In this document: piece by piece, positions 21,156 through 37,837 of the stretch
Position numbering within the stretch: position 1 is the stretch's first letter
Layout of the letters: each line of letters begins with the position of its first letter
Assembly: GCA_041661005.1 (NCBI GenBank)
Contig: JBAZVG010000001.1
Coordinates: 72,019 to 112,115, forward strand
DNA from: Minisyncoccota bacterium
Lineage (GTDB): Bacteria; Patescibacteriota; Minisyncoccia; Phycocordibacterales; UBA9973
Direction of reading: 5' to 3'
Length of the DNA: 40,097 bases
The notes under the pieces: generated by a model
Database searches by the model: none
What the model was told of the DNA's origin: nothing
What the model saw: only the letters and a program-made list of their open reading frames with translations
Made by a program: the position numbers and the translations under genes

Positions 21156-24125
21156 ATGAAAGAATATAACCACTTAAAGATAGAAAGTAAATGGCAGAAA
21201 GAATGGGAAAAAAAAGGGATTTATCATGCAGAGAACCCTACCAAGGACGGGGCAAGTAATTCAAAAAAACCCAAATATTATAGTTTAATTGAGTTTCCTT
21301 ACCCATCCGGCGAGGGTCTTCATGTTGGACATCCACGGCCTTATATAGGAATGGATATAATTTCTAGAAAAAGAAGGTTGCAAGGATACAATGTCTTGTA
21401 TCCTATTGGCTGGGATGCATTCGGCTTACCGACAGAGAATTACGCCATAAAAACAGGCAAGGACCCGAGAGTTGTCACTAAAAAAAATACTGATACTTTC
21501 CGTAAACAGATACAATCGCTTGGCATTTCTTTTGATTGGTCTCGAGAGATAAATACTACTGATCCAAAATATTACAAATGGACGCAATGGATATTTTTGC
21601 AGTTTTTGAAAAAAGGTTTGGCTTACAAAAAGAAGATGGAGATAAATTGGTGCCCGAAAGATAAAATCGGTCTGGCTAATGAAGAAGTGATAACCCGTTC
21701 GACAGGCTCAGGGCAAGCTGGCTATTGTGAGCGATGTGGGACTCCTGTAGAAAAAAGAGAAAAAGAACAATGGATGCTCGCTATTACAAAATACGCTGAT
21801 AGGCTTTATAAAGATTTAGATGAAGTGGATTATTTGCCTCAGATAAAACTGGGGCAGAGGAATTGGATAGGGAAGAGTGAAGGCGCGGAAATAGATTTTA
21901 AAATCAAAGATAGTAGTGAAAAAATAAAAATATTTACTACGCGCGCTGATACTATTTTTGGTGCTTTTGCGGTCATACTTGCGCCAGAACATGAATTGGT
22001 GCAAAAATCAAAATCACAAATTAAAAATTTTAGTGAAGTTGAAAAGTATTTAAATGAAGTAAAAAAGAAAACAGACATAGAACGCACCTCCGAAGATAAA
22101 GATAAAACAGGAATTGAATTAAAGGGATTGAAAGCAATAAATCCAGTAAATAATGAAGAAATTCCTATTTGGATTGCGGATTTCATTTTGGTTCAATATG
22201 GCACAGGAGCTGTCTTTGCAGATATGCATGATGAGCGTGATTTTGCATTCGCAAAAAAATACAAGATGTCGATGCGTCAGTCAGTCATGCCTTTGTTTGA
22301 AGATAAAGTGCATCCATGGGTTAAGGATAAAAAAATAGTAGAAAGAAAAGCGATACATGCTGTGATTAGAAAAAATAATGGGGACATCCTGCTTCTTTAT
22401 TGGAAGGGTGAAGAATGGAAGGGTAAACCTCCGGTTACTTTTGTCATAGGTGGTGTTGAGAACGGTGAGAATTTGATTGATGCCGCTATGCGAGAAATAA
22501 GAGAAGAAACAGGTTTTTTAAATTTAAAATTTGTTGAACAATTGCCAATATCTACTCAATCCAGATTTTTTGCCGCCCATAAAGATGTTAACAGGATTGC
22601 GAATGTAACTTGTCTTGTTTTTGATTTAATAAATGAAGATCGTGCGGAAGTTGATAAGAAAGAAAAAAAACTTCACGATTGGAAATTTGTCTCTGTAAAT
22701 AAAGTTGCGCAAGATCTGAATATTGAAGATGATAAATTGTTTTTTAATTATCTAAATAAGCCTTCAACATTTGTTGGTGAGGGCGTGTTGATAGATTCTG
22801 GTAAATTTACCGGTATGCCATCTGTAGAAGCTCGTCAAAAAATAATAAAAGAAGTGGGTGGTAAAATAGTCACCAAATTCAAACTTCGCGATTGGGTTTT
22901 TTCGAGACAGAGATATTGGGGCGAGCCGATTCCGGTGATTTTTTGTAATACTTGTGGGACAGTGCCAGTGCCGGAAAAAGATTTGCCGGTAGAACTTCCA
23001 AAAGTTAAAAATTATCAGCCGACAGATAGTGGTGAATCACCACTCGCAAACATAAAGAGTTTTGTGGACACTCGGTGTCCACTATGTAAAGGCAAAGCGA
23101 AGAGGGAAACAGACACAATGCCAAATTGGGCAGGAAGCTCTTGGTATTATTTGCGATATGTTGATTCGAAAAATAATAAAGCTTTTGCAGGGAAAAAGAA
23201 TTTAGAATACTGGCTCGGGAATGACCAAGTTGTTGGTGGAGTAAATTGGTATAACGGAGGCAATGAACACACTACTTTACATCTTTTGTATTCTCGTTTT
23301 TGGCATAAATTTTTATATGATTTAAAACTTGTGCCTACAAATGAGCCATATATGAAGCGAACTTCGCATGGCATGATTTTAGGCGAAGGGGGAGTTAAAA
23401 TGTCTAAATCTCTAGGTAATGTGATCAATCCAAATGAAATAGTGAAAACATACGGCGCAGACACGATGCGTGTTTATGAAATGTTTATGGGGCCGTTTGA
23501 TCAATCCGTCGCTTGGTCTACGGAGAGCATCATCGGTGCAAGGAGATTTATTGAAAAAGTTTGGAGAATTCAGGCGAAGCTTGTGAATGATTTTGAACGG
23601 TCTGGCCGGGGGAGGGACCCGGAGAACCGAGGACCTGAAAAATTATTCACAAGCGAAGCCTATATAAATCTAAAAAGATTACTACACAAAACCATCAAAA
23701 AAGTTTCTGAAGACATTGAAGATATGCGTTTTAATACTGCTGTTTCTTCTATGATGATTCTGGCAACAGAGATGGAGAAAGCTGAGAATGTTTCCGTAGA
23801 TGATTTCAAAATGTTTTTAAAAATTCTTTCGCCTTTTGCGCCACATGTGACGGAAGAATTGTGGAGCATGCTTGGTGAAAAGAAAACAATCAATCTTTCG
23901 GAATGGCCGAAATGGGAAGAGAGTTTGATAAAAGATGAAGAGGTAAAAATTATGGTACAAATAAACGGCAAAGTCAGAGGTGAAATCATTATCCATGTGG
24001 ATGAACAGAAAGAAGATGTAAGAGATAAAGCTCTCAAAGACGCTGACATAGTGAAATACGTTGAAGGTAAAGATATTAAAAGAATAATCTATGTAAAAGG
24101 TAGACTTATTAACATTGTTTTGTAA
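21156..24125 (+). CDS. leuS: leucine--tRNA ligase with an internal Nudix domain
   Basis: FPYPSGEGLHVGH (HIGH), CP1 motifs FTTRADT and GTGAV..HDERD, SRQRYWGEPIP, KMSKS; Nudix box GGVENGENLIDAAMREIREETGF. Confidence 0.97.
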   Translation: MKEYNHLKIESKWQKEWEKKGIYHAENPTKDGASNSKKPKYYSLIEFPYPSGEGLHVGHPRPYIGMDIISRKRRLQGYNVLYPIGWDAFGLPTENYAIKTGKDPRVVTKKNTDTFRKQIQSLGISFDWSREINTTDPKYYKWTQWIFLQFLKKGLAYKKKMEINWCPKDKIGLANEEVITRSTGSGQAGYCERCGTPVEKREKEQWMLAITKYADRLYKDLDEVDYLPQIKLGQRNWIGKSEGAEIDFKIKDSSEKIKIFTTRADTIFGAFAVILAPEHELVQKSKSQIKNFSEVEKYLNEVKKKTDIERTSEDKDKTGIELKGLKAINPVNNEEIPIWIADFILVQYGTGAVFADMHDERDFAFAKKYKMSMRQSVMPLFEDKVHPWVKDKKIVERKAIHAVIRKNNGDILLLYWKGEEWKGKPPVTFVIGGVENGENLIDAAMREIREETGFLNLKFVEQLPISTQSRFFAAHKDVNRIANVTCLVFDLINEDRAEVDKKEKKLHDWKFVSVNKVAQDLNIEDDKLFFNYLNKPSTFVGEGVLIDSGKFTGMPSVEARQKIIKEVGGKIVTKFKLRDWVFSRQRYWGEPIPVIFCNTCGTVPVPEKDLPVELPKVKNYQPTDSGESPLANIKSFVDTRCPLCKGKAKRETDTMPNWAGSSWYYLRYVDSKNNKAFAGKKNLEYWLGNDQVVGGVNWYNGGNEHTTLHLLYSRFWHKFLYDLKLVPTNEPYMKRTSHGMILGEGGVKMSKSLGNVINPNEIVKTYGADTMRVYEMFMGPFDQSVAWSTESIIGARRFIEKVWRIQAKLVNDFERSGRGRDPENRGPEKLFTSEAYINLKRLLHKTIKKVSEDIEDMRFNTAVSSMMILATEMEKAENVSVDDFKMFLKILSPFAPHVTEELWSMLGEKKTINLSEWPKWEESLIKDEEVKIMVQINGKVRGEIIIHVDEQKEDVRDKALKDADIVKYVEGKDIKRIIYVKGRLINIVL
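23579..23654. repeat. intragenic palindromic element in leuS (16-bp arms, one mismatch)
   Basis: gcttgtgaatgatttt ... aaaattattcacaagc around a GC-rich core. Confidence 0.85.
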
Positions 24126-28822: not shown

Positions 28823-29839
28823 TTAACTATACTTTTTTATCAACTTATTTGCTTCTTTTGGATTTGCTTTACATTCTAAAAGCGCGGTCAAAATAAGAGG
28901 AACGACGATGGTGGCGTCGGATTCTACTACGAACATTGGAGTGTCTTTGGTTAGTTTATCCCAAGTTATTTTTTCATTTGGAGTTGCTCCAGAATACGAA
29001 CCATAAGAAGTTGTCGAATCAGAAATTTGACAGAAATAAGCCCAAGGTTTTACCTTGCTGACTTCCATGTCATATTTGAGAGATGGTACGACACAGATAG
29101 GGAAGTCTCCGGCTATTCCTCCACCTATTTGAAAAAAACCGATTCCATTGCCTTTGGAAAGTTCTTGATACTGGTCATAGAATGCTCCCATATACTCTAT
29201 GCCACTCTTGGCGATGTTTGCGCTTGCACCGCCCTTCTTTACATGTGAAGCAAAAATGTTGCCAAAAGTGGAGTCTTCATAGCCCGGCACAACAATGGGG
29301 ATATTGTTCTCGGCGGCGGCCAAGAGCCAGCATTCTTCTGCTTTACCTTCGTGCTTTTTTTTATCTATCGCTTGAATCAAGTCATAAAAATATTCATGCC
29401 AGAATTTGCGGGTTTTTTCTTTTGTTGCTTTTTCCCAGACAGGCACAATCAAGCTCTCTACTGCGCGGAATGCTTCATCTTCTGGGATGCTGGTATCTGT
29501 AACTCGGCGCATGCGATTTTCTAAAATTTTTGTATCATCTTCTTTGGTGAAATATCTGTAATCAGGGAAATCTTTATAACTGTCATGCGCCACTAGGCGA
29601 AAGAGAGATTCCTCTAGATTTGCGCCAGTGACAGACATGCTGTGAATAAGGCCGTTTCTGATAGCGGGCGCGAGTGTGATGCCCAGCTGGGCTGAAGACA
29701 TGGCTCCAGCCATAGCCCAAAACATTTTTCCGCCTTTTTCTAAATGTCTCCAATAAGCAACGAGCGCGTCGCGAGTAGCGCGAGCGTTAAAATTTTTATA
29801 ATTTTTTAGAATGAATTCTAATGTTTCTAAATTTGCCAT
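28823..29839 (-). CDS. deoxyhypusine synthase-like protein (bacterial SpeY-type, putative homospermidine pathway)
   Basis: AGAMSS, TGANLEE, DSTFG, IGGGIAGDFPIC, SYGSYSGATPNEKITWDK (catalytic Lys position kept). Confidence 0.9.
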   Translation of the reverse strand: MANLETLEFILKNYKNFNARATRDALVAYWRHLEKGGKMFWAMAGAMSSAQLGITLAPAIRNGLIHSMSVTGANLEESLFRLVAHDSYKDFPDYRYFTKEDDTKILENRMRRVTDTSIPEDEAFRAVESLIVPVWEKATKEKTRKFWHEYFYDLIQAIDKKKHEGKAEECWLLAAAENNIPIVVPGYEDSTFGNIFASHVKKGGASANIAKSGIEYMGAFYDQYQELSKGNGIGFFQIGGGIAGDFPICVVPSLKYDMEVSKVKPWAYFCQISDSTTSYGSYSGATPNEKITWDKLTKDTPMFVVESDATIVVPLILTALLECKANPKEANKLIKKYS

Positions 29840-29932: not shown

Positions 29933-31318
29933 ATGGTATACTATAGTGTGCATGAAAGGATAAGAAGTACCGAAAAAATCTGTTGTTATCGAAATTCTTA
30001 TTTTGGTATCTTCTTCTTTTTCCTCCTTTTTTTTCTAGCAAACAACTTAGCTTCCGCGGAACTTGCAACTGCCAAAGTTGCTCTCCCTTTATATATTTAT
30101 CCCTCAAATGGAGAAACAAACTGGACCAAAGCTCATACTTTTGGACAAAAAATTGATTTTATTATTGCTAATGTCTACAACGGTCCAAGCGGGGAAGTAA
30201 ATTCCGATTGGACGAACATGATTGAAGCTACTATTCAAAATCATATAAAAGTATATGGTTATGTTTACACAAGCTATGGGGCAAGGGCAGGAAGCAAGGT
30301 GGACGAAGATGTGGCAAGGTGGCTACAACTTTATCCCCAAATCAGTGGTATTTTCTTGGACGAAACTGCTTCGAGCTCCGACAAAATTCCTTACTATAAA
30401 GCGCGCTATGATTATATAAAGCGATTGAATTCTTCTCTAAGGGTAGTCATCAATCCCGGAACTGTTACCGATGAAGGATATATGAATGTGTCTGACGTGA
30501 ATACTATATTTGAAAGCAATCTTTCGTCGTGGAATAATGCACATTTTCCTGAATGGGTTTTAAAATATCCCGCTAGCCGTTTTTATTCGATCATCTATGG
30601 AGTGTCGAGTGAAGAAGAAATGAAAAATGTGGCGCGAGTCGCTCGAGAAAAGAATTTTGGGGAGGTATTCATTACAGATGCCTTCTCTCCTTCGGATAGG
30701 CTCCCAACTTATTTTTCATCAGAAATATCTGAAATTACAAGTGTAACTACTCCAATCATTCCCCCGGTTGTTCCTCCAATAGTTATTCCCCCAGTAGATC
30801 CAGTCATTCCCCCAATAAATAACGAACAGACTTCCAATCCTCCTTCTCCCGACCTCTGCTCTAACATTTCAGGAATTCAATTATCAATTCCTTCTAGCAT
30901 GAATATAGTAAATCTCGAGTGTGTAATCCAAGATGTTGGTAATAACGTGTCGGAGGATATTTCAGACACCACGACTTTCTCTGAAAATAGAACAGTTGTT
31001 AAAATTACGCCTGCGCCCATACCCATAGAAGAATGTTACGACGGTAGCCAGTATAACAGGTCCACCGGAGCGTTGTGCGCTAATAACAATCCAGTTTACA
31101 ACTTCGGCTCTACTATTCTCAAGAATGGAAGCAAAGGTGAAGCGATTAAAGAACTCCAAAGATTTTTAAATGCAAAATTAAATCTTGGCCTTGTGCTGGA
31201 TGGTAAATTTGGTCCGAAGACGACCGTTGTCGTCAAGAAATGGCAGAGAGAGAATGGTTTAGTGGCTGACGGTATAATTGGACCGAAAACGAAAGCAAAG
31301 ATGGAGACAGATTTATAG
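29933..31318 (+). CDS. secreted spherulation-specific family 4 (GH135-like) hydrolase with Pro-rich linker and C-terminal peptidoglycan-binding domain
   Basis: VALPLYIYP, NGP, GIFLDE, VINPG, FES; linker PIIPPVVPPIVIPP; LKNGSKGEAIKELQRFL...DGKFGPKT..VKKWQ...ADGIIGPKT. The start may be GTG 29948. Confidence 0.8.
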   Translation: MVYYSVHERIRSTEKICCYRNSYFGIFFFFLLFFLANNLASAELATAKVALPLYIYPSNGETNWTKAHTFGQKIDFIIANVYNGPSGEVNSDWTNMIEATIQNHIKVYGYVYTSYGARAGSKVDEDVARWLQLYPQISGIFLDETASSSDKIPYYKARYDYIKRLNSSLRVVINPGTVTDEGYMNVSDVNTIFESNLSSWNNAHFPEWVLKYPASRFYSIIYGVSSEEEMKNVARVAREKNFGEVFITDAFSPSDRLPTYFSSEISEITSVTTPIIPPVVPPIVIPPVDPVIPPINNEQTSNPPSPDLCSNISGIQLSIPSSMNIVNLECVIQDVGNNVSEDISDTTTFSENRTVVKITPAPIPIEECYDGSQYNRSTGALCANNNPVYNFGSTILKNGSKGEAIKELQRFLNAKLNLGLVLDGKFGPKTTVVVKKWQRENGLVADGIIGPKTKAKMETDL

Positions 31319-33165: not shown

Positions 33166-33513
33166 TTATTCCTTTTCTTTTATCAGAACTTCTCTTGGCT
33201 TGGCTCCATCTCCTTCACCTATGATATCTCGCTCTTCCAGTAAGTCCATCAATCTAGCTGATCGCGCATAACCTAATTGAAATTTTCTTTGAATATAAGA
33301 AGTTGATGCTCTGCCTGCTTTTATCACAGCGGACTTTACTTTCTCATATAAGTTTTCATCATCAAGATTATCATAAATACCCCCATTTTCATTTTTTATC
33401 TGCATTATAATATCTGAATATTGCGAGTTCTGACGCTCTGAAATCAATCTGACTTTTTCAGACAATTCGTCGATTTTTCGCTCTATATTTTTAAGATTTT
33501 CTTTTCCGAACAT
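33166..33513 (-). CDS. stand-alone FtsK gamma (winged-helix) domain protein with N-terminal coiled coil
   Basis: DENLYEKVKSAVIKAGRASTSYIQRKFQLGYARSARLMDLLEERDIIG..GAKPREVL; no motor domain. Confidence 0.88.
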   Translation of the reverse strand: MFGKENLKNIERKIDELSEKVRLISERQNSQYSDIIMQIKNENGGIYDNLDDENLYEKVKSAVIKAGRASTSYIQRKFQLGYARSARLMDLLEERDIIGEGDGAKPREVLIKEKE

Positions 33514-33610: not shown

Positions 33611-33892
33611 CTAAAATCTACATAAAAAATCGCAGAACATTTTTCCATAAGGTGAAACTCTATGCTCTACTGTAGTGCCTTTGTAATTTTTATTGAGTAA
33701 CCCTGCTTGTACCAATCGCCTCGTGTGTTCAGAAATTGTTTTAAAATTACAATCTAGGTTTTCTGAAATTTCATCCAAGGAAATCCCGGGATTTTTTAAC
33801 ACAAGTAGTAATATTGAAATACGACGATGATTAGCCGCGCCCTTAAAATATCTTTCGAGTTGCTTTGCTGTTTTTGTTTTGTTTGTTTTCAT
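33611..33892 (-). CDS. ArsR-like winged-helix transcription regulator
   Basis: ANHRRISILLLV...ISLDEISENLDCNFKTISEHTRRLVQAGLL.K...G..VEHRVSPYG. Confidence 0.85.
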   Translation of the reverse strand: MKTNKTKTAKQLERYFKGAANHRRISILLLVLKNPGISLDEISENLDCNFKTISEHTRRLVQAGLLNKNYKGTTVEHRVSPYGKMFCDFLCRF

Positions 33893-34165: not shown

Positions 34166-34459
34166 TTAATTTCGGTGAGATCCAAACCAATCCCAAGCTT
34201 GTTTTGGAAGCCACCCTTGTTGGTTCTTTGGATTAACTTCCATTATTATGTGTTGTCTTAGAGGCATATGCTTAATTAAAAGATTATAAAGTTGATTCAC
34301 TTCTAATGCAGACTCAACAAAATAAAGTCCCCCCGGTAAATAATGCCACCAAGTTTTAATATAACCAAGTTTATAGAGTTGTTGTATATAAACATGAAAT
34401 TTACTCAGATCAAAGGGATGAGTTGTATTAGGCATAATCATGTAAATTTTATTATTCAT
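34166..34459 (-). CDS. small ferredoxin-like-fold protein (family often labelled SinR-like or Cas2-like)
   Basis: WWHYL...LYNLL...IIMEV....QGWLPKQAWDW motif; recognised from memory. Confidence 0.55.
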   Translation of the reverse strand: MNNKIYMIMPNTTHPFDLSKFHVYIQQLYKLGYIKTWWHYLPGGLYFVESALEVNQLYNLLIKHMPLRQHIIMEVNPKNQQGWLPKQAWDWFGSHRN

Positions 34460-34856
34460 GTTCTTGTTTCTCTATTTTATCTATTGATAAGGAATCGGCA
34501 GTTTCGGGTTTGGGTAAGCTTGGATTATTTTCAAGTGTAGATGATTTAAAATCTTTATATGTATGTTGTTGATCTCCTAAGACTTCTAAAGCTCTCATCA
34601 TGAATATATGATGTTCGGACTGGAGAAATTTTTTATCTCCCCAAATTAAAATTCCAATAAAAGAAAGTAAAAATACAGCTAAAGTAAATCCAATTGCCCA
34701 CATAAAAAAAATTTGAACAGTAATATTATCAGTAAAACTAACAACCACTAATCCGGCAAAAAGGAAAGGTAAAATCCATAACAGAGAACTGAGCACAGTA
34801 CTAACACGTACTTTCTTTACCATTTCTGTAGCTGATTTTATTGGATCAAATGACAT
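34452..34856 (-). CDS. hypothetical two-TM membrane protein
   Basis: Two hydrophobic segments (about residues 20-68), then LQSEHHIFMMRALEVLGD; overlaps the next gene by 8 bp. Confidence 0.7.
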   Translation of the reverse strand: MSFDPIKSATEMVKKVRVSTVLSSLLWILPFLFAGLVVVSFTDNITVQIFFMWAIGFTLAVFLLSFIGILIWGDKKFLQSEHHIFMMRALEVLGDQQHTYKDFKSSTLENNPSLPKPETADSLSIDKIEKQEHE

Positions 34857-34860
34857 AAAA

Positions 34861-37008
34861 TTATTTTTTCTCTAAAACTTCCTGAACTATCCCCTGAATA
34901 ATATCTCCTTCTTCTGGAATAATTGGTTGATGTTTGGAATTGGTACTTTTTGGTAATAATATTCTGCGACCATCTCTTTTGTCGTAATATTTTATTGTGA
35001 CATTTTCACCCCCAAGCAAGGCAACAACCTTATCACCAGTTTCACCCTTTTCTGAATAACGACACAATACTAAATCCCTATCATTAATTCCGGATTTATT
35101 CATAGAATCTCCATCAGCTCTAACTATAAAATATTTTGCTCCAGGTTTAATTTTACTTTTTTCAACTTCAATATATTCCTCAATATTTTCTTCACTAAGA
35201 AGCGGATTTCCACATGGAGCAGAACCGACTAATGGAATACCAATTGTATCAATAACATATGGGGATTCAATTATTTGAGATAAAATAACTTCATCTTTTA
35301 TCTTATTCTTAATGTTGTACATCTCTACGTGTTCATTAAAATAGTCTCTTAAATTTTTATTACATGCATAAATATATGAACCCTTAATCCCTCTAAGCAA
35401 AAGAGTTTTGTATATATTTATTATAAACTTTTTAAGTTCTTCTGGATTTTTAATTGATTGCTTTCCATTTTTATCGAAGTAGTTTTCTTCTAAAATAATA
35501 ATCTCGTTTTTTTCTTTATCGTAAGATATTTCATCTCCAAAAATTATTCCTGTATAATTTAAGTCATATCCTTGCGTGGTATGAATACATCCAACCTCAT
35601 TTATTGCATTCTGGGAATTAATAAAATCTTTGGTTACGCTATTCCATTTTAATTTAATATCGCCAATGACAATGTCATGTATATCTTTTTTTCGTGAAAT
35701 CCATGGCCAAGAAAAACCTGCAACGAGTCTTGATAAACCAAATTTGTCATTCCTATTTTTTATCTTTTCAACCATATCATTCAAGGAATCAAAAATTAAA
35801 AATTCATAGTCCCCAGATTTAAATAAAATATCATTTTTACGGAACTTGCAATTTAATAATTTATCAATATAACTAACATAATCAACCCCACCCCTAACTC
35901 TAAATTGTGAATTAAGTTTTTGTATTAATGTTGTCTTCTTTAATTTAAGAAGATCAAAATCTTTCTTATTAACATCTGATGGTTTTATAGATTGATTTTC
36001 ATCATAGAAAAACAGACTTTTTTTACTTTGTGTAATTATCCAATCTAATTCATTGCCAACATGTTTTTCTAAACCCAATTTTTGATTTACAATATCAAAA
36101 GCACCGAAATATGTACCAAGATTAATTCTTTTTCGTAATCTATGTGATTCATCAACAATTAAAATATCGTATTTTTTATTTACAACCTCAGCTGGACCAA
36201 TTACCATTGAAGCATTCAAGCCTTTTACATTTCTGAATACTTTTTTTAATGTTCCACGAAATGAAGCCATCGGAACAACTAATGCCATAGATGGATCGGG
36301 GTACTTATTCTTTAAATCTCTAACTAATTTTATAAATTCCTTCTCGTCGTCCCCAAAATCCTTAAAATTAAAATCATTTAGATCGGAATTTAATAATTTA
36401 AAAAGGAATACAGCTAAAATAGTTTTACCGGTACCAGCACCTCCCTCAACAATTATACTGTTTGTTTCATTTTGTAAAAGATTTTTAATAAGTTCAATGA
36501 TGCTATTCTTTTGATCAACTGAAAGAGTTTTATAGGGAGAATACTTAAATAAATCAGAATTATTAATTTGTTCTAACGAATTTTTTATTATTCCTTCAGA
36601 TTTCAATTCTTTCCAAACTGTTTTAAAAATATCCCAATATATTTCATTTTTTTGATAATAAGTATGATTAGCTAACCCAAGATTTCCATTTAATAATTTA
36701 AATTGGCCATCTCCCGATAAATATTTAATTAAATTAGATTCTATATCTAGCGTTGCTGATTTATTAAATTTGTCACTTGTTATAAGTCGAACCTCTGTAA
36801 GTTTATTTTTAGAATTATTTTTAAGATGTGTAGACATTCTAGAGATTGCGTCAGTTGTTTCACCTACATAGGCCTCCTTAATATTTCCATCACTTAAAAT
36901 ATAAACCAGTGGCCACAAACCATCTACAAAATGATTTTTATCAATTTTATTTAACAAACTGAAATTAAAATCGTATTTTTTGATTTCAAAAATGTTTACT
37001 TCATTCAT
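34861..37008 (-). CDS. GIY-YIG nuclease + DUF2075 (Schlafen group 3-type) SF1 helicase-like ATPase + C-terminal S24 (LexA/UmuD-like) peptidase domain
   Basis: VYIL...YVGET...R..H and LDIES (GIY-YIG); GGAGTGKT, IVDESHR, YDENQ, SQFR, CIHTTQGYD; IPLVGSAPCG, ADGDSM, VTIKYY (S24). Confidence 0.88.
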   Translation of the reverse strand: MNEVNIFEIKKYDFNFSLLNKIDKNHFVDGLWPLVYILSDGNIKEAYVGETTDAISRMSTHLKNNSKNKLTEVRLITSDKFNKSATLDIESNLIKYLSGDGQFKLLNGNLGLANHTYYQKNEIYWDIFKTVWKELKSEGIIKNSLEQINNSDLFKYSPYKTLSVDQKNSIIELIKNLLQNETNSIIVEGGAGTGKTILAVFLFKLLNSDLNDFNFKDFGDDEKEFIKLVRDLKNKYPDPSMALVVPMASFRGTLKKVFRNVKGLNASMVIGPAEVVNKKYDILIVDESHRLRKRINLGTYFGAFDIVNQKLGLEKHVGNELDWIITQSKKSLFFYDENQSIKPSDVNKKDFDLLKLKKTTLIQKLNSQFRVRGGVDYVSYIDKLLNCKFRKNDILFKSGDYEFLIFDSLNDMVEKIKNRNDKFGLSRLVAGFSWPWISRKKDIHDIVIGDIKLKWNSVTKDFINSQNAINEVGCIHTTQGYDLNYTGIIFGDEISYDKEKNEIIILEENYFDKNGKQSIKNPEELKKFIINIYKTLLLRGIKGSYIYACNKNLRDYFNEHVEMYNIKNKIKDEVILSQIIESPYVIDTIGIPLVGSAPCGNPLLSEENIEEYIEVEKSKIKPGAKYFIVRADGDSMNKSGINDRDLVLCRYSEKGETGDKVVALLGGENVTIKYYDKRDGRRILLPKSTNSKHQPIIPEEGDIIQGIVQEVLEKK

Positions 37009-37010
37009 AA

Positions 37011-37358
37011 CTAAAGTTTGTTATATTTTGTATGCCTTCCTTTAGCTTTTTCGACTGGATACTTTTCTTCGTTTTTTAAAATCTTTTTTTTAAGTGCTTC
37101 TGAAACATCAATCTTTAGATCATGACTCATCAGCAAGACCCAATAAAGTACGTCCGCTAATTCTTCACCAATCTCGACTTTATTAGTTTTAATATATTTT
37201 TCAATTTCCTCTTTGCTTTTCCATTGAAAATGTTCCATAACTTCTGTCGCCTCTAAAACTAAAGATAAGGCAACATCTTTCGGGTTGTGGAATTGCTTCC
37301 AATCTCGGGCGTCACGGAAAGCTATAATTCTTTTTGTTAAATCGTTAATATTTTTCAT
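37011..37358 (-). CDS. MazG-like nucleotide pyrophosphohydrolase (dCTPase-like)
   Basis: FRDARDWKQFHNPKD...EATEV...EELADV...KNEEKYP. Confidence 0.93.
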   Translation of the reverse strand: MKNINDLTKRIIAFRDARDWKQFHNPKDVALSLVLEATEVMEHFQWKSKEEIEKYIKTNKVEIGEELADVLYWVLLMSHDLKIDVSEALKKKILKNEEKYPVEKAKGRHTKYNKL

Positions 37359-37726
37359 AATTTTATCTCAAAAGCTCATCACTCGAAACCCCCGCCAAAG
37401 GACGGGCAGGCAAGTGCTTTTGCTAATTTGGTAATAACCGAGTTTTCTTGAGTTATTCACAACCTGAGTATAATCCTTATTGTCTTTTTCAACAATGTTG
37501 TTTTGTAATACAATGTGTCTCCAAAATCTTCCCCCGCATTCCTCCCCAGAAATACAGTCGCGCTTTAATGGGACAGTGCACGACACGATTCTGCTGAATC
37601 GCTTGCGGGCAGAATTCCGAATTTCGCCAAATTTCAAAGAAATCTACGCGAAACTAAATATGCATATATGCATACCTGCCTCCATTTCCCCCTTCTATTT
37701 TACATTTCTCCCACGTTACTTTACTT

Positions 37727-37744
37727 AACTAAAGTACTTTAGTT
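37727..37744. promoter_or_regulatory. perfect 18-bp palindrome, possible operator
   Basis: aactaaagt|actttagtt, upstream (minus strand) of the MazG operon. Confidence 0.35.
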
Positions 37745-37837
37745 GGCTAAAGTAAATAGCTTCCGAATTCACTAGGACAGTCCTTGCGAAAACTTAGATA
37801 AACAGAAAGCCCCACCGAAGCAGAGCTCCCGTGGGGT

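Follow-up and report, generated by a model that had tools for sequence, protein, structure and literature searches.

A LexA-type S24 peptidase domain carried by a GIY-YIG/DUF2075 nuclease-helicase of a MazG operon: a candidate SOS-responsive self-cleaving tail

To our knowledge, the well-studied self-cleaving domains of the S24 family all control either DNA binding, as in repressors of the LexA and cI kind, or a subunit of a polymerase, as in UmuD. This report concerns a protein of 715 amino acids (aa) in which such a domain forms the C-terminus of a nuclease-helicase. It is encoded, together with a MazG-like protein, in a chromosomal stretch of 40,097 nucleotides (nt) from a Minisyncoccota bacterium (contig JBAZVG010000001.1; the whole stretch is hereafter called the window). 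The proteins of the window were compared with relatives taken from protein database matches and from one genome per GTDB species. The tail of the protein is LexA/UmuD-like and its body is Nhi-like, yet it is a member of neither group. No description of an S24 domain fused to DUF2075 proteins or restriction enzymes, nor of a MazG-like/DUF2075 operon, was found in the searchable literature, which leaves out most subscription journals.

The tail resembles LexA of Escherichia coli (PDB 1JHC, 1JHE and 8TRG) over its C-terminal 125 aa, both in sequence (approximately 34% identity) and in predicted fold, and it has a cleavage loop, a Ser-Lys dyad and a hydrophobic pocket for F203 of RecA. Unlike LexA, the window protein has no winged-helix DNA-binding domain (no LexA_DNA_bind match), carries a 590-aa nuclease-helicase in its place, and is no transcription factor. 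With UmuD/UmuD′ it shares the S24 fold and a Cys-Gly scissile bond, and self-cleavage mediated by the RecA filament on single-stranded DNA (RecA*) is the UmuD paradigm. However, the PDB match to UmuD is weaker (E 7.4e-08 versus 6.6e-14 for LexA), neither umuC nor a polymerase V gene lies near the window gene, and UmuD sheds a 24-aa peptide, whereas the window protein would release a 599-aa enzyme.

SLFN11 responds to replication stress at single-stranded DNA (ssDNA), and the helicase core of the window protein belongs to the same Pfam family as that of the group III Schlafens (SLFN11, SLFN5 and SLFN13), with a structural likeness to SLFN11. The Schlafen/AlbA_2 RNase core is lacking (no such Pfam match), and the helicase domain alone is common to both. 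By analogy only, the window protein may be seen as a sensor of the SOS ssDNA filament fused to a helicase of the same family. Bacterial Schlafen defence proteins are defined by the RNase domain, and their recent description mentions neither S24 nor DUF2075. Nhi of Staphylococcus epidermidis limits the accumulation of phage DNA; both of its activities are needed for defence, and the full-length protein is auto-inhibited (bioRxiv 10.1101/776245). Nhi (SERP2475) and Nhi-like single-gene nuclease-helicases share with the window protein their layout, a nuclease at the N-terminus and, behind it, a DUF2075 (PF09848) superfamily 1 (SF1) helicase with intact Walker A and B motifs. They differ in the nuclease, which is PD-(D/E)xK in Nhi and GIY-YIG here, in the MazG-like partner, which is obligatory for the window family, and in the C-terminus, which in Nhi is a poorly conserved glyoxalase/bleomycin-resistance-like domain and here is S24. 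Filing the protein as Nhi was rejected, as the PADLOC Nhi model matched at E 8.5e-7 and its best stretch covered only residues 149-206, the P-loop region.

The predicted features of the nuclease-helicase gene are as follows (window coordinates; residue numbers are those of the protein).

34861-37008, minus strand, stop codon included: fusion of a GIY-YIG nuclease, a DUF2075 (Schlafen group 3) SF1 helicase and a LexA-type S24 domain, 715 aa (open reading frame, Pfam, NCBIfam, AlphaFold2)
36679-36909, minus strand: GIY-YIG nuclease domain, approximately residues 34-110 (Pfam match at residues 34-75, 26.8 bits versus a cutoff of 22.6)
35362-36456, minus strand: DUF2075/SLFN-g3 helicase core of the SF1B type, residues 185-549 (Pfam PF09848, E 4.8e-61)
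36421-36444, minus strand: Walker A motif GGAGTGKT, invariant in 120 homologues
36142-36156, minus strand: Walker B motif VDESH, invariant in 120 homologues
35236-35361, minus strand: linker, residues 550-591, predicted to be flexible (AlphaFold2 local confidence, pLDDT, below 50 at residues 568-582) and holding the recombination breakpoint (sliding-window identity)
34864-35235, minus strand: Peptidase_S24 domain of LexA origin, residues 592-715, cassette type 13 (Pfam, NCBIfam, PDB alignment, fold)
35209-35214, minus strand: predicted scissile bond Cys599-Gly600, equivalent to LexA Ala84-Gly85 (PDB alignment)
35104-35106, minus strand: putative catalytic Ser635 of the GDSM motif (35101-35112), equivalent to LexA Ser119 (PDB alignment)
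34990-34992, minus strand: putative general-base Lys673 of the VTIK motif, equivalent to LexA Lys156 (PDB alignment)

Residues 592-700 were assigned to Peptidase_S24 by Pfam (PF00717; E 7.1e-19, 68.1 bits versus a cutoff of 23.3), and residues 1-549 hold the GIY-YIG and DUF2075 domains. Both results confirm what an earlier interpretation of the bare letters (the sequence-only reading) had recognized, namely an S24 domain fused behind a nuclease-helicase in place of a helix-turn-helix. A phmmer search of the PDB aligned IGIPLVGSAPCGNPLL to EGLPLVGRVAAGEPLL of E. coli LexA (E 6.6e-14). Among the 118 S24-bearing homologues, Ser635 and Lys673 are kept without exception and Gly600 is kept in 117, while 60 have Cys and 58 have Ala at residue 599. 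The serine and lysine are likewise kept in all 208 S24 domains, drawn from three cassette types, and an (Ala/Cys)-Gly bond is found in essentially all of them. Judged by this conservation, the module is probably a functional self-cleaving one.

In the nuclease domain, Y36, Y47, G49, R57, E90, N107 and N109 are invariant over 117 aligned sequences, and H61 is likewise listed as invariant in the family. Because the S24, Walker and GIY-YIG residues are all invariant, the three activities (nuclease, helicase and S24) appear to be maintained by selection. The helicase part gave no match to the PDB by sequence; in a Foldseek search with the AlphaFold2 model, the middle of the protein resembled the SF1B helicases Upf1, RecD, Dna2, SLFN11 and nsp13. 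In the model, built with 117 homologues (mean pLDDT 81.7), the C-terminus forms a separate beta domain, which can be superposed on crystal structures of the LexA C-terminal domain (target-normalised TM 0.80-0.85, root-mean-square deviation 2.3-2.6 Å). The pLDDT is also below 50 in the cleavage loop (residues 597-599), and this loop and the low-confidence linker would fit a mobile loop and a flexible tether, respectively.

In the cryo-electron microscopy structure of LexA on RecA*, residues V79, V82, F111, L113, V146 and V153 of LexA form a pocket that is entered by RecA F203, which stabilises the cleavable state (bioRxiv 10.1101/2023.10.30.564768). Mapped at the sequence level, these positions correspond to V594, A597, F627, V629, V662 and V670 of the window protein, all of them hydrophobic and four of the six identical to LexA; F627 is invariant across the nuclease-helicase family. 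The retained pocket is the best evidence available in this analysis that the tail may still read RecA filaments, and we consider RecA* more likely than not to be the trigger of cleavage. A switch responsive to ssDNA or to the SOS signal, acting through a cleavage that we infer from the conserved residues, is consistent with all findings.

Besides the domain itself, the sequence-only reading had identified the GDSM serine, the VTIK lysine and the Cys-Gly site at their exact coordinates, all of which stand; its reading of the Cys-Gly bond as a pointer to UmuD does not. The NCBIfam LexA model TIGR00498 matched residues 590-712 (E 3.9e-20, 72.3 bits, below the cutoff of 110.95) and the UmuD model NF007621 matched residues 599-712 (E 6.7e-14, 51.9 bits, below the cutoff of 110); scores under the cutoffs are expected when a lone domain is compared with whole-protein models. 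A search of 1.84 billion representative proteins with only the S24 region ranked nine fragments from the family itself first, and next to them proteins of 200-215 aa that were 46-51% identical and were matched over approximately their residues 75-205. One of these carries a LexA_DNA_bind domain, and one cluster, from low-GC groundwater bacteria, is named repressor LexA. The Cys-Gly bond is used by 52 of 72 of these CPR-type LexAs (CPR, candidate phyla radiation), so it is no pointer to UmuD, and their consensus nearly equals the window domain in each motif. Since LexA scores better than UmuD and the nearest relatives outside the family are LexAs, the S24 domain of the window is a captured LexA C-terminal domain that was not derived from UmuD.

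The three cassette types are marked by the sequences PLVGsAPC/G (type 13, that of the window), SvGC/G (type 5) and kaAA/G (type 1, with GESMN and an insertion), where the slash denotes the bond. Mean identity of type 13 is 40% to type 5, 27% to type 1 and 42% to genuine LexAs. On the nuclease-helicase tree the S24 types are interleaved, and the phylogeny of the N-terminal part conflicts with that of S24. P0002, the closest relative, is 87% identical to the window protein in its N-terminal part and 47% identical within S24; for L070 the corresponding values are 50% and 84%. In sliding windows, the change falls at residues ~545-585, where identity to P0002 drops from 80-100% to 40-55% and identity to L070 climbs from 30-60% to 80-97%. 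As the N-terminal and S24 identities disagree, S24 is a portable module, a swappable cassette exchanged between lineages with the breakpoint in the linker region (residues ~545-570).

Genes without S24 that end with a proper stop at 562-577 aa (L064, L072, P0060 and P0094) are nested among the S24-bearing ones. These variants, and the S24-less Bacillus relatives with MazG described below, indicate that S24 is an accessory regulator that has been gained, swapped and lost, and is not part of the core. All seven CPR genomes carry the LexA-like types 13 or 5, and all non-CPR genomes carry type 1, including the Bacteroidota loci L012-L014, the N-terminal part of which groups with CPR sequences. The cassette type follows the host phylum, which suggests that the tail must match some host factor.

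The fusion is present in 118 of the 120 best homologues, nearly all of them 707-735 aa long with PF09848 and PF00717. The scan of GTDB species found at least 579 loci with a relative; hosts among the matches listed include CPR/Patescibacteria, many Bacteroidota, Proteobacteria (Achromobacter, Comamonas, Natronospirillum and Acinetobacter), Lentisphaeria, Lentimonas and Gracilimonas. Loci were compared over the best 80 of these, and S24 occurs in 72 of the 76 that could be judged, the remaining four being cut by contig ends. The match lies far beyond chance, and the fusion, which by the sequence-only reading's own criterion must not be confined to one assembly, is clearly widespread. An assembly artefact or gene-merging error was excluded by approximately 190 independent full-length homologues of the same architecture. 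A phage or plasmid origin was also rejected, as phage and plasmid collections gave only S24-less relatives of 20-37% identity.

The same cassettes were found on other nucleases. A 630-aa protein (P0206/P0279) joins a MutH/Sau3AI-like nuclease domain to a type 5 S24, which shares 76% identity with the S24 of family member P0063, and a second such protein has an S24 86% identical to that of P0065. The P0279 gene is divergent to an adjoining C5 DNA methylase gene, with which it forms a restriction-modification pair, and an AIPR abortive-infection gene lies beside them. In Arenibacter nanhaiticus, a type IV methyl-directed restriction enzyme of 1122 aa (L041:6379-9747; PLD nuclease, SF2 helicase and DUF3427; PADLOC mREase_IV, E 2.4e-234) carries an extra C-terminal type 1 S24 at residues 977-1121, and its gene is located 2.5 kb downstream of the MazG/nuclease-helicase operon. 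S24 is therefore a C-terminal module common to several DNA-cutting defence enzymes. The MutH-like/S24 genes (P0206 and P0279) stand at L090:5224-7116 and likewise in L091 and L092, the last two with a SocA_Panacea gene nearby.

The partner of the nuclease-helicase is the first gene of the operon:

37011-37358, minus strand: MazG-like/DCTPP1-like all-alpha nucleotide pyrophosphohydrolase, 115 aa (Pfam MazG-like, E 6.8e-17)

A gap of 2 nt separates its stop codon from the start of the nuclease-helicase gene, and its relatives in the PDB are the pyrophosphatase 4qgp (E 1.9e-19) and dCTP pyrophosphatase 1/RS21-C6 (E 3.4e-16). In 79 of the 80 GTDB loci a MazG homologue immediately precedes the nuclease-helicase gene on the same strand, in most of them with an overlap of 4 or 1 nt, and the sole locus without one starts at a contig end; the two genes thus form a two-gene operon. 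Megaplasmids of Bacillus carry a MazG/DUF2075 pair in which the DUF2075 protein is 34-37% identical and has no S24. The MazG partner is kept in these pairs, and the conserved core is therefore MazG-like plus GIY-YIG/DUF2075, with S24 a later addition in one clade.

The S24-less pair on plasmid p419 of Bacillus mycoides (L088:3399-11151) is flanked by two HNH endonuclease genes and by a gene for a 1005-aa DEAD/DEAH helicase that matches the PADLOC candidate PDC-S71 (E 3.6e-35), which gives this region the look of a defence island. In a Lentisphaeria locus, a second MazG-like gene (L065:9414-9758; E 6e-25 to that of the window) is located 1.2 kb downstream of the operon and maybe belongs to a second cassette. 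In a member of the Nomurabacteria, the closest relative in GTDB, the operon has a gene for a PemK/MazF-type toxin immediately upstream (L008:5014-5403).

DCTPP1 prefers 5-modified dCTPs, and a PLD-helicase-DUF3427 type IV restriction enzyme, specific for modified DNA, stands beside the operon in five of the 80 loci. The DCTPP1-like partner and these neighbours suggest the idea that the system might be aimed at phages with modified cytosine. Neighbours of this PLD-helicase-DUF3427 type without an S24 domain were seen in L061, L067, L068 and L072.

The window itself is a piece of CPR chromosome, encoding AlaRS, LeuRS, TGT, MnmA, YceG, RNase P RNA and tRNA-Ala. The GC content of the operon is 28.5%, as against 38.8% for the first 31 kb of the window, which points to recent acquisition. 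A larger operon was rejected, as the downstream genes at 34452-34856 and 34166-34459 were seen again in no contig other than the identical L001. Upstream of the MazG-like gene, a non-coding stretch of approximately 480 nt (37359-37837) appears GC-richer than the operon and holds a terminator-like hairpin (37805-37830) and an imperfect 40-nt palindrome (37716-37755). Rfam gave nothing credible for this stretch, similarity to it was absent from every other locus compared, and promoter and terminator scans stayed at chance level; it may be an operator, a small RNA or a remnant.

Several other genes of the window were noted. In the leucyl-tRNA synthetase (21156-24125, plus strand, 989 aa), residues 397-528 form an inserted NUDIX hydrolase domain, right behind the editing domain (Pfam E 2.2e-13). 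A 115-aa protein (33166-33513, minus strand) is made up almost wholly of an FtsK gamma, KOPS-binding domain (E 1.4e-24), and is adjoined by a 93-aa ArsR/MarR-like winged-helix protein (33611-33892, minus strand) in the low-GC stretch downstream of the operon. A deoxyhypusine synthase homologue (28823-29839, minus strand; E 2.5e-40) is present in this CPR genome, and a Spherulin4-family protein (29933-31318, plus strand) combines a peptidoglycan-binding domain with a proline-rich linker.

We hypothesize that the operon is a mobile two-gene cassette composed of a DCTPP1-like MazG followed by an Nhi-like GIY-YIG/DUF2075 helicase, and that one large clade of the helicase captured a complete LexA C-terminal domain, cleavage loop included. 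The S24 tail would dimerise, dock in the groove of the RecA-ssDNA filament and cut its own Cys599-Gly600 bond using Ser635 and Lys673, so that the nuclease-helicase (residues 1-599) would be irreversibly parted from the tail (residues 600-715). Once cutting of or damage to host DNA raised RecA*, the enzyme would be freed from its dimerising tail and left by the cut with a LexA-type C-terminal degron, by which it would be inactivated or degraded, a built-in form of restriction alleviation. For this explanation as a whole, a mobile two-gene cassette with a RecA*-triggered self-cleaving safety fuse, we see about an even chance.

In SOS-linked restriction alleviation, ClpXP removes the HsdR subunit of EcoKI after DNA damage. 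The logic proposed here would be alike, with DNA damage turning off a DNA-cutting immune enzyme to spare the chromosome; unlike in that system, where the switch is supplied in trans, the enzyme itself would contain it in the form of a self-cleaving domain. LexA-like proteins bear a latent degron immediately N-terminal to the cleavage site, through which the N-terminal fragment is destroyed once cleavage has taken place (PMC5742171). Four considerations favour an off-switch. Restriction enzymes that bear this cassette have to attack entering DNA at a time when no RecA* exists yet; enzymes that lack S24 are tolerated, and the harmlessness of the nuclease therefore does not depend on S24; the nuclease-helicase sits where the degron-marked N-terminal fragment of LexA sits; and in type 1 the cut would expose VAA or AAA as the new C-terminus, as in E. 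coli LexA. The predicted flexible linker (pLDDT below 50) argues, in addition, against a tight intramolecular auto-inhibition. The off-switch direction, argued by analogy, is nevertheless a tentative choice that we place just short of an even chance.

Various observations weigh against the proposal. Apart from the analogy on which the direction of the switch is based, host recA lies outside the window, and the pTM of 0.52 for the AlphaFold2 model leaves the inter-domain geometry uncertain. UmuD is activated by homologous cleavage, a precedent for activation. In Nhi, the full-length protein is nearly inactive and an N-terminal fragment arising in cells is active, with truncation raised by the authors as a possible natural step (bioRxiv 10.1101/776245). 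The last two points favour an on-switch with the logic of abortive infection, in which the tail would keep the enzyme inactive, as a dimer or tethered, until RecA loaded on phage replication or recombination intermediates induced self-cutting and the freed residues 1-599 attacked DNA. The conserved catalytic apparatus would support such a switch equally, and immune sensors typically swap their sensor domains. However, variants and whole clades that lack S24 are viable, which means that the enzyme is not lethal by itself and that S24 cannot be all that restrains it; the R-M endonuclease and the type IV restriction enzyme with the same cassette are both needed before RecA* forms; and the cargo occupies the place of LexA's degron-marked fragment behind a linker predicted to be flexible. 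We therefore hold activation by cleavage to be unlikely, although it is the best placed of the alternatives.

The type 1 cassette is a further difficulty for the off-switch triggered by RecA*. Its F203 pocket, conserved in type 13, is remodelled in the Bacteroidota (Y, A/V, F, C, L, Y), and this cassette may answer to a different signal. A single type 1 sequence from Bacteroidota found no match in the PDB or NCBIfam, and a type 1 profile matched LexA only marginally (E 0.0048), so that capture of this type from a Bacteroidota LexA could not be shown. Self-cleavage might accordingly be independent of RecA and respond instead to another stress, to a phage protein or to helicase-bound nucleic acid, for which the LexA-like regulator IrvR is a precedent; the remodelled pocket and insertion of type 1 would agree with this, and a cassette type that tracks the host phylum fits matching to another host factor. 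The type 13 cassette of the window is, however, a nearly canonical LexA C-terminal domain, with six LexA-like pocket positions and 46-51% identity to true LexAs, and a trigger other than RecA* seems quite improbable.

A defence role is itself something we infer from context. PADLOC provided no strong model for either gene of the operon, only weak partial matches (Nhi, PDC-S14 and PDC-S41). Known or candidate defence genes, namely type IV restriction enzymes (4), SoFic, AriA, PtuA, CapP, NYN, MazF and several PDC, make up a minority of the 138 immediate neighbours counted over the 80 loci, and the remaining ones are housekeeping genes. MazG and DCTPP1 are house-cleaning enzymes, and the operon could, with its Cho/UvrC-like GIY-YIG domain and helicase, be a module for DNA repair or sanitation of the nucleotide pool that S24 would tie to SOS; the many loci amid housekeeping genes and the lack of a strong PADLOC match would then be natural. 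Such a role sits poorly with the patchy, horizontally transferred distribution over CPR, Bacteroidota, Proteobacteria and others, with the GC content of the cassette (28.5% versus 38.8% for the bulk of the window) and its frequent domain shuffling, with an architecture common to the proven defence enzyme Nhi and Nhi-like proteins, and with the defence genes among the neighbours and the HNH nucleases and PDC-S71 helicase flanking the Bacillus plasmid loci. We regard it as improbable to a similar degree.

Least probable of all is that S24 has no proteolytic role and only dimerises, as the sequence-only reading had offered as an alternative, or recruits the enzyme to RecA filaments or host LexA: in LexA, UmuD and cI the C-terminal domains are described as dimerising and binding the RecA filament groove (PMC9926225), and the F203 pocket residues are kept, but dimerisation alone would not preserve Ser, Lys and the scissile Gly over 208 domains of three types that are 27-40% identical.

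The finding extends to other enzymes, as the S24 module, with its catalytic residues and RecA pocket intact, stands here on at least three unrelated kinds of DNA-cutting enzyme. It is possible, and we advance it with less confidence than the off-switch itself, that LexA-type S24 cassettes are a general portable RecA*-sensing fuse on DNA-cutting immune enzymes that gives cis-encoded restriction alleviation: RecA filaments from chromosome injury would trigger cutting of the tail and destruction of the enzyme, and the cassettes would be exchanged between enzymes and replaced to suit the host after transfer across phyla. The family is found in cultivable isolates of Flavobacterium, Tenacibaculum, Achromobacter and Comamonas. 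If the cleavage is real, it would connect the SOS signal directly, at the protein level, to anti-phage or restriction nucleases. An off-switch would explain how cells keep such enzymes from killing them once their own DNA becomes the target, and an on-switch would show infection-derived ssDNA arming them. The broader principle to which these results point is that of SOS-coupled self-cleaving tails on immune nucleases.

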